A stretch of 5,879 nucleotides of DNA, taken from NCBI RefSeq assembly GCF_003334815.1, contig NZ_QOWO01000071.1. The stretch is one strand, 5' to 3'. Below the pieces are notes generated by a model. The model was given only the letters and a program-made list of their open reading frames with translations. It did not search any database and was not told the DNA's origin. Position 1 is the first letter of the stretch, and every line of letters begins with the position of its first letter. This document shows, piece by piece, positions 3,396-3,425 of the stretch. A program made the translations under genes and the position numbers. This DNA is from Escherichia coli. Lineage in GTDB: Bacteria > Pseudomonadota > Gammaproteobacteria > Enterobacterales > Enterobacteriaceae.

Positions 3396-3425
3396 ATAAA
3401 TATGTGATATGAATCACATATTTAT
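3396..3425. promoter_or_regulatory. cAMP-CRP binding site: perfect TGTGA-N6-TCACA core inside a 12-bp-arm dyad
   Basis: ataaataTGTGAtatgaaTCACAtatttat. The core TGTGA (3403-3407) and TCACA (3414-3418) are separated by 6 bp, and the flanks are also symmetric (arms 3396-3407 and 3414-3425). It sits in the tsr/btsT divergent intergenic region, about 205 bp upstream of the btsT ATG at 3616. btsT/yjiY is reported to be cAMP-CRP dependent. Confidence 0.8.

Follow-up and report, generated by a model that had tools for sequence, protein, structure and literature searches.

The tsr–btsT region

The window, by which we mean the whole stretch of 5,879 nucleotides analysed here, corresponds to the lgoT/tsr/btsT region of Escherichia coli and is 100% identical to the same region of strain 720632 and 99.2% identical to that of a K-12 derivative. 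The btsT gene (yjiY) encodes a pyruvate/H+ symporter of 716 aa and extends over 3631..5781 on the plus strand, according to the RefSeq annotation of the homologous K-12 locus and to the list of open reading frames. Its start codon in RefSeq is the ATG at 3631 (MDTKK), and the 80 retrieved orthologues align from residue 1. An ATG at 3616, in frame with btsT, is the start of the longest ORF, and the first-pass annotation of this DNA had measured its btsT distance from there. An AGG is present 7 nt 5' of the ATG at 3631. The tsr gene is carried by the minus strand and starts with the ATG at position 3254.

A sigma-28 promoter can be read from the sequence upstream of tsr (TAAAGTTT-N11-GCCGAAAA, 3285..3311, minus strand), with a predicted start near 3277. 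A genomic-SELEX peak of the RpoF holoenzyme was reported in the yjiY/tsr spacer at position 4589632 of U00096.2 (PMC5493296), which maps to about 3301 in the window, atop this promoter. The tsr promoter lies outside the CRP module described below. K-12 strains carry one extra G at about 3339 (between GAGT and AATTT), so that their tsr–btsT spacer measures 377 bp, versus 376 bp in the window; this difference affects only the mapping of coordinates on the tsr side.

A palindromic CRP-type site between the two genes

A perfect inverted repeat of 30 bp is found at 3396–3425 (ATAAATATGTGAT-ATGA-ATCACATATTTAT). The first-pass annotation had rightly called it perfect, but its arms, which are 100% complementary and separated by a gap of 4 nt, are 13 nt long and not 12. 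It is the longest perfect inverted repeat of the window. Inverted repeats of at least 13 nt appeared in 0/300 dinucleotide shuffles of the whole window and in none of 2000 dinucleotide shuffles of the intergenic DNA. Since the shuffles never reach arms of 13 nt, the palindrome is real and beyond chance expectation.

Nested within the palindrome, at 3403–3418 (centre 3410.5), is a predicted cAMP-CRP core of 16 bp, TGTGATATGAATCACA, which matches TGTGA-N6-TCACA exactly and is the sole match in the 5,879-bp window even with one mismatch allowed. By coordinate mapping, it corresponds to positions 4591492–4591507 of NC_000913.3 in strain MG1655. An exact core arose by chance in 2 of the 300 whole-window shuffles and in 0/2000 intergenic ones. 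A full-text literature search with the sequence of the site returned no match. The centre of the core is located 220.5 bp from the btsT ATG at 3631 and 205.5 bp from the ATG at 3616. On the other side, the edge of the palindrome closest to tsr is 142 bp away from the tsr ATG, and the centre 156.5 bp. The distances proposed earlier, about 205 bp to position 3616 and about 140 bp to the tsr ATG, are thus approximately correct, but the btsT ATG is the one at 3631.

BtsR boxes and the predicted btsT promoter

The motif bound by the response regulator BtsR (YehT), said to have been described by Kraxenberger in 2012, is reportedly ACC[G/A]CT[C/T]A-N13. Two boxes of the window form a pair fitting this published repeat, namely box 1 (ACCGCTTA, 3467..3474) and box 2 (ACCACTCA, 3488..3495), both on the plus strand and separated by a spacer of 13 bp. 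A third box on the same strand, box 0 (GCCGCTCA, 3447..3454), lies 20 bp upstream of the published pair, so that the start-to-start spacings in the window are 20 and 21 bp. Box 0 is conserved across genera as AACCGCTyA and reads ACCGCTCA in the other E. coli haplotypes; its first base is a G in the K-12-like haplotype because the haplotype breakpoint described below falls there. The SPR oligonucleotide of the Jung laboratory, 'yjiY YehT bs', which binds BtsR/YehT (PMC4847170), corresponds to 3441–3499 of the window, and it includes box 0 as well as boxes 1 and 2. The CRP core is separated from box 0 by 28 bp, and the palindrome from the published oligonucleotide by 15 bp. The site is therefore upstream of the BtsR repeats, as the first-pass annotation stated, but it is not far from them.

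Downstream of the boxes, a gapped alignment of 41 representatives contains the motif T(c/t)TG(g/c/t)CAnnAT, which falls at 3526–3536 of the window. The part of it conserved as TGnCAnnAT, that is, TG-G-CAACAT at 3528..3536 on the plus strand (hexamer 3531–3536), we take to be a putative extended -10 element. The accompanying -35 is poor, in keeping with an activator-dependent promoter. The second and sixth positions of the hexamer CAnnAT, A and T, are present in 41/41 representatives, and the motif is situated 41–43 bp 3' of box 2. The btsT promoter was missed by a simple sigma-70 scan. Two other ways of reading this DNA were rejected: the conserved TGGCA is not part of a sigma-54 promoter, given that the -12 position lacks TTGC, and the combination of 'CAGCATAG' as -10 with CTGGCA as -35 would leave a spacer of merely 11 bp.

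From the extended -10 element, we infer a btsT transcription start at 3543 (± 2 nt, plus strand), at the A of a conserved CAG 7 nt past the hexamer, which would give a leader of 88 nt. Because this start is itself predicted, the absolute positions that follow from it are predictions as well, with an error of ± 2 bp or more. The CRP site (centre 3410.5) would thus be centred at about -132.5, box 0 (centre 3450.5) at about -92.5, box 1 (centre 3470.5) at about -72.5 and box 2 (centre 3491.5) at about -51.5. The centre of the CRP core is 120.5 bp upstream of the start of the predicted -10 hexamer, which bears out the earlier statement that CRP does not act here from -41.5.

Several other elements are found around the predicted promoter. 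The sequence TTTACC-N4-CTTTACG, at 3500–3515 between box 2 and the predicted -10, is conserved in Enterobacteriaceae and could be a -35 element, an UP-like element or an extra BtsR contact. An inverted copy of the box 1 region is located at 3548–3559 (AGCGGTCAATTT, 92% complementary to AAACTGACCGCT at 3461–3472), about +5 to +17 of the predicted leader, and seems limited to Escherichia. In some loci, the btsT leader carries an ERIC/IRU-like insertion of about 125 bp between a conserved 'cttcggcc' and the ribosome-binding region (GTGAATCCCCGGGAGCTTACA...AGTAAGTGACAGGGGTGAACG), as seen at 2655–2790 of locus L003 and likewise in loci L004, L006, L016 and L076; going by the ERIC primer sequences, these insertions are presumably ERIC elements. 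Such insertions were seen in E. coli of the hpa-type, in E. albertii and in part of the Citrobacter loci. Their position, 3' of about 3600, is consistent with this region being transcribed leader, and they might have an effect on leader structure or on CsrA control.

Conservation across Enterobacterales

A scan with one genome per species yielded 80 Enterobacterales loci, whose BtsT proteins share 90–100% identity. The genera sampled include Escherichia, Salmonella, Citrobacter, Klebsiella, Raoultella, Kluyvera, Kosakonia, Enterobacter and Lelliottia, as well as Leclercia, Pluralibacter, Trabulsiella, Leminorella, Pantoea, Erwinia, Mixta and Rahnella. A CRP core (≤1 mismatch, typically GTGATCTCAATCACATA) is found at the same position in about 72/78 species, and the distance from the start of the core to the start of box 2 is 83–86 bp in 72 of the 78. 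In the other six, this distance is off by exactly one box unit of 20–21 bp, which is an artefact of the choice of the anchor box. Measured to box 0, the distance from the start of the core is 44 ± 1 bp in 41/41 representatives. In control DNA taken from these loci, cores (≤1 mismatch) occur at 0.005 per 450 bp. Every spacing within the module is conserved, with 44 ± 1 bp between the core and box 0, 20–21 bp from each box to the next and 41–43 bp from box 2 to the putative -10, with 124–128 bp between CRP and the -10 element.

An information profile was computed after the sequences had been aligned at the core, with weighting by genus (36 groups). It reaches 2.0 bits at G3404, G3406, A3407, T3414, C3415 and C3417. 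The G:C pairs in GTGA/TCAC that separate CRP sites from FNR sites (G3404, G3406, C3415 and C3417) are thus invariant in the 36 genus-level groups. On the 5' side of 3403 and within the 28-bp spacer, information is about 0 bits, and it rises again at box 0, the flanks carrying 0–0.3 bits. The core is therefore a discrete footprint in otherwise diverged DNA and, because information is about 0 bits beyond 3403, the conserved control region of btsT ends distally at the CRP site. Being exact, unique in the window, beyond the reach of the shuffles and conserved, the core upholds the original assignment of the palindrome as a CRP-type site.

Recombinant haplotypes of the spacer in E. coli

Sorting of the 5426 complete genomes of this species by the DNA present between tsr and the BtsR boxes distinguished three main versions. 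The K-12-like version, to which the window belongs, is found in 2754 genomes. In the hpa-type version (2227/5426 genomes, 41%), a hpa (4-hydroxyphenylacetate) cluster of about 11 kb is inserted between tsr and btsT. The O157/O55-type version (363 genomes) harbors an extra ORF of 180 aa between tsr and the CRP site. On the tsr side, homology among the haplotypes reaches to about 3312, just past the -35 of the sigma-28 promoter, which is kept in all three; it restarts at about 3448, at box 0. The palindrome is therefore contained in a haplotype-specific segment of 135 bp (3313–3447).

In all three haplotypes, an exact TGTGA-N6-TCACA nevertheless starts 44 bp ahead of box 0. The site reads ATGTGATATGAATCACAT in the K-12-like haplotype, TTGTGATCATCATCACAT in the O157-type and TTGTGATCTCAATCACAT in the hpa-type (also given as TTGTGATCTCAATCACATAT); neither its flanks nor the 28 bp leading from the core to box 0 are related in sequence among the three. 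In hpa-type strains, the CRP site comes immediately after the hpaC terminator and adjoins btsT, while tsr, 11 kb away, retains an upstream spacer of 118 bp with its sigma-28 promoter; no CRP core was found in these 118 bp. The hpa-type site (GTGATCTCAATCAC) resembles the version common in other genera, and judged by this likeness the K-12 version looks derived. The 44 nt of 3389–3432, around the palindrome, recur with ≥99% identity in at least 2028 genomes, and the arms are intact in a K-12-like sub-haplotype of 94% identity, in which the loop ATGA has become ATAA. Among the sequences compared, arms of 13 nt thus set the K-12-like haplotype of E. coli apart.

The tsr–btsT spacer is also a hotspot of recombination or insertion (3313–3447 of the window, to be compared with 1668–2499 of locus L002 and with loci L003 and L086). 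The K-12-like segment is found in E. albertii as well. The O157/O55-specific ORF of 180 aa encodes a hypothetical protein (1849–2391 of locus L002, plus strand), for which NCBIfam gave no match and PADLOC only a marginal one, its model of orphan methyltransferases (E = 9e-4). Within the hpa cluster, the hpaR–hpaG spacer contains a CRP core with one mismatch (TGTTAATTAGATCACA, 7228–7243 of locus L086).

Alternative readings of the palindrome

The first-pass annotation had placed the site in a control region shared by tsr and btsT. A single bidirectional CRP site for the two divergent promoters would suit the K-12-like haplotype, where the site lies between both genes at about 133 bp from each predicted start (btsT 3543, tsr about 3277), and tsr and btsT are adjacent in about 28 of the sampled species. 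However, only 30/80 loci have a Tsr-like gene in the 1.5 kb upstream, and about 50 of the 78 species, in which tsr is missing from that interval, keep the CRP site at unchanged spacing from the BtsR boxes. Where tsr is adjacent, the distance between the CRP centre and its ATG varies from about 100 to 157 bp, and the position of the site is thus fixed with respect to btsT only. The E. coli haplotypes also argue against sharing: the site stays with btsT in the 2227 hpa-type genomes, whose 118-bp tsr spacer holds only the sigma-28 promoter, an additional ORF separates it from tsr in the 363 O157-type genomes, and homology on the tsr side stops just beyond the sigma-28 -35. Moreover, tsr is a class 3 flagellar gene on which CRP acts via flhDC, which likewise counts against a shared site. 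The equidistance of about 133 bp is probably a coincidence, because this symmetry is absent in other genera. The site follows btsT and not tsr, and the shared-region reading is unsupported, so that we regard a bidirectional site as improbable.

Even less probable is a role of the palindrome as a DNA or RNA structure (a cruciform, a hairpin, a terminator or a recombination scar) instead of a protein site. The stem of 13 bp in the K-12 version has a folding energy of -10.2 kcal/mol as single-stranded DNA, with a z-score of -6, and the palindrome sits in a haplotype-specific 135-bp segment flanked by two homology breakpoints. Conservation is nevertheless confined to the CRP half-sites. The outer mirror positions are complementary in just 14–30 of the 80 sequences, without covariation, and T3403 is replaced by C or A in 40/80, while its partner A3418 is never altered to compensate. 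These observations argue against a selected hairpin or cruciform and for arms that are lineage-specific, and the extended symmetric flanks highlighted earlier lose their standing as a functional feature. A scan for terminators found no terminator-like site, Rfam gave no match over the whole window, and the two genes are divergent, so there is nothing there to terminate. There is just as slim a chance that the palindrome is bound by a regulator of similar motif, such as FNR (TTGAT-N4-ATCAA), or drives a K-12-specific cryptic promoter, and does not activate btsT. GTGATnnnnATCAC does fit the FNR consensus at 8/10 positions, but G3404 and C3417, which distinguish CRP, do not vary in any of the 36 genus groups. 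Two weak sigma-70-like matches are present nearby (3347–3375 on the plus strand and 3400–3371 on the minus strand), but this number is at chance level (0.9 ± 1.0 expected in shuffles) and both fall in unconserved DNA. Finally, the simple reading as a CRP site agrees with the published CRP dependence of btsT.

Regulation of btsT by CRP and BtsR

The dependence of btsT on CRP is said to have been in print since 2012, in the work of Kraxenberger et al. 2012 in J Bacteriol 194:4272. Later studies place transcription of yjiY under cAMP/CRP control (PMC5431176) and state that btsT needs CRP-cAMP in addition to BtsR (PMC10653868), BtsR itself being required (PMC5431176, PMC10653868). The activity of a PbtsT-lux fusion is completely abolished by deletion of crp (PMC7730263), and btsT is repressed by glucose (PMC5431176, PMC7730263, PMC10653868). 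Among the cross-species CRP site predictions of PhyloScan (2007), yjiY ranked 4th to 7th (PMC1794230). CRP is not mentioned in a comparative paper on LytS/LytTR systems. We estimate at about 85% the probability that the palindrome, as its sequence and conservation suggest, is a functional cAMP-CRP operator of btsT forming the distal end of a module of fixed geometry. We further infer that the dependence of btsT on CRP runs through this very palindrome, although the effect of the crp deletion could in principle be partly indirect, for instance via expression of btsSR or pyruvate physiology.

The position of the site does not correspond to either of the two simple classes of CRP-dependent promoters. 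In a class II promoter, CRP is centred near -41.5, over the -35, and here it would lie at about -132.5 from the predicted start. A class I promoter has a single CRP site between about -61.5 and -93 and no second activator, and here three BtsR boxes lie in between and BtsR is required according to the literature. The class-I-like activation envisaged by the first-pass annotation thus gives way to a co-activator layout. Indeed, the arrangement matches that of co-dependent promoters, in which CRP binds distally at a fixed distance and both activators are required, the dual requirement being taken from the literature and the start being predicted. Because CRP would be located at about -132.5, behind the BtsR array, it is best described as a putative upstream co-activator that is neither class I nor class II.

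A mechanism can be proposed on this basis. When cAMP is high, upon exhaustion of glucose, CRP would occupy the palindrome, and CRP together with BtsR phosphorylated in response to the pyruvate signal would switch btsT on, both being needed (AND logic). BtsR bound to the proximal boxes would recruit or activate RNA polymerase, and CRP, one protein-width further upstream, would serve as an obligatory co-activator, acting via a phased DNA bend, contact with the alpha-CTD of RNA polymerase or aid to BtsR occupancy (cooperative loading). The spacer is strictly conserved in length but not in sequence, which points to a stereospecific role. A direct contact between CRP and the polymerase is uncertain, since a position of about -132 exceeds the usual class I range, and any specific contact model stands about an even chance of being correct. 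More tentatively, CRP and the LytTR-type BtsR, with 40 bp between the CRP centre and the centre of the distal BtsR box, may form a composite element of fixed geometry that acts from about -132 by a face-specific bend or a CRP–BtsR contact instead of the alpha-CTD; we hold this version to be less likely than not. Its geometry is kept across Enterobacterales even where recombination has replaced the upstream DNA. If it is true, a bend or a CRP–BtsR contact would represent a so far undescribed mode of synergy between CRP and a LytTR-type regulator.

The CRP dependence of btsT and a predicted CRP site of yjiY are already known, and so is the textbook-style integration of two signals by btsT, in which cAMP-CRP conveys the catabolite status and BtsS/BtsR reports extracellular pyruvate. 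What appears to be added, modestly, is the fixed CRP–BtsR geometry throughout the order, the distal third box and the persistence of the site in recombinant haplotypes of E. coli. The description by the Jung laboratory is also extended by the evidence that tsr has no share in the site, whose assignment to btsT only is useful for the annotation of regulons around the tsr/btsT spacer. The CRP site thus marks the boundary of a rigid control module conserved order-wide, and the exceptional 30-bp symmetry is a lineage-specific and not a conserved feature.

Comparison with known systems

The closest known system is the btsT (yjiY) promoter studied by the Jung laboratory, which is the same locus, with BtsR/YehT bound to direct repeats (3441–3499), a need for cAMP-CRP and repression by glucose, and no essential difference from it was seen. 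Well-known promoters that combine CRP with a second activator include uhpT (CRP at about -103.5 with UhpA), araBAD (CRP at -93.5 with AraC) and rhaSR (CRP at -111.5 with RhaR). In all of these, the primary activator abuts the core promoter, CRP is bound just distal to it, both inputs are required and the spacing is stereospecific, as appears to be the case for btsT. Unlike them, btsT has its CRP site further out, at a predicted position of about -132.5, and the partner of CRP is a LytTR-type response regulator on three phased boxes. The promoter of cstA, a paralogue of btsT, likewise belongs to a pyruvate transporter of the CstA family and depends on CRP; compared by description, its CRP site is said to be unusually far upstream, but cstA has no BtsR boxes and its second regulator is Fis. 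The lac (class I, -61.5) and galP1 (class II, -41.5) promoters share both the recognition sequence and the regulator with the btsT site, whereas at btsT CRP would be positioned at about -132.5, with another activator in between.
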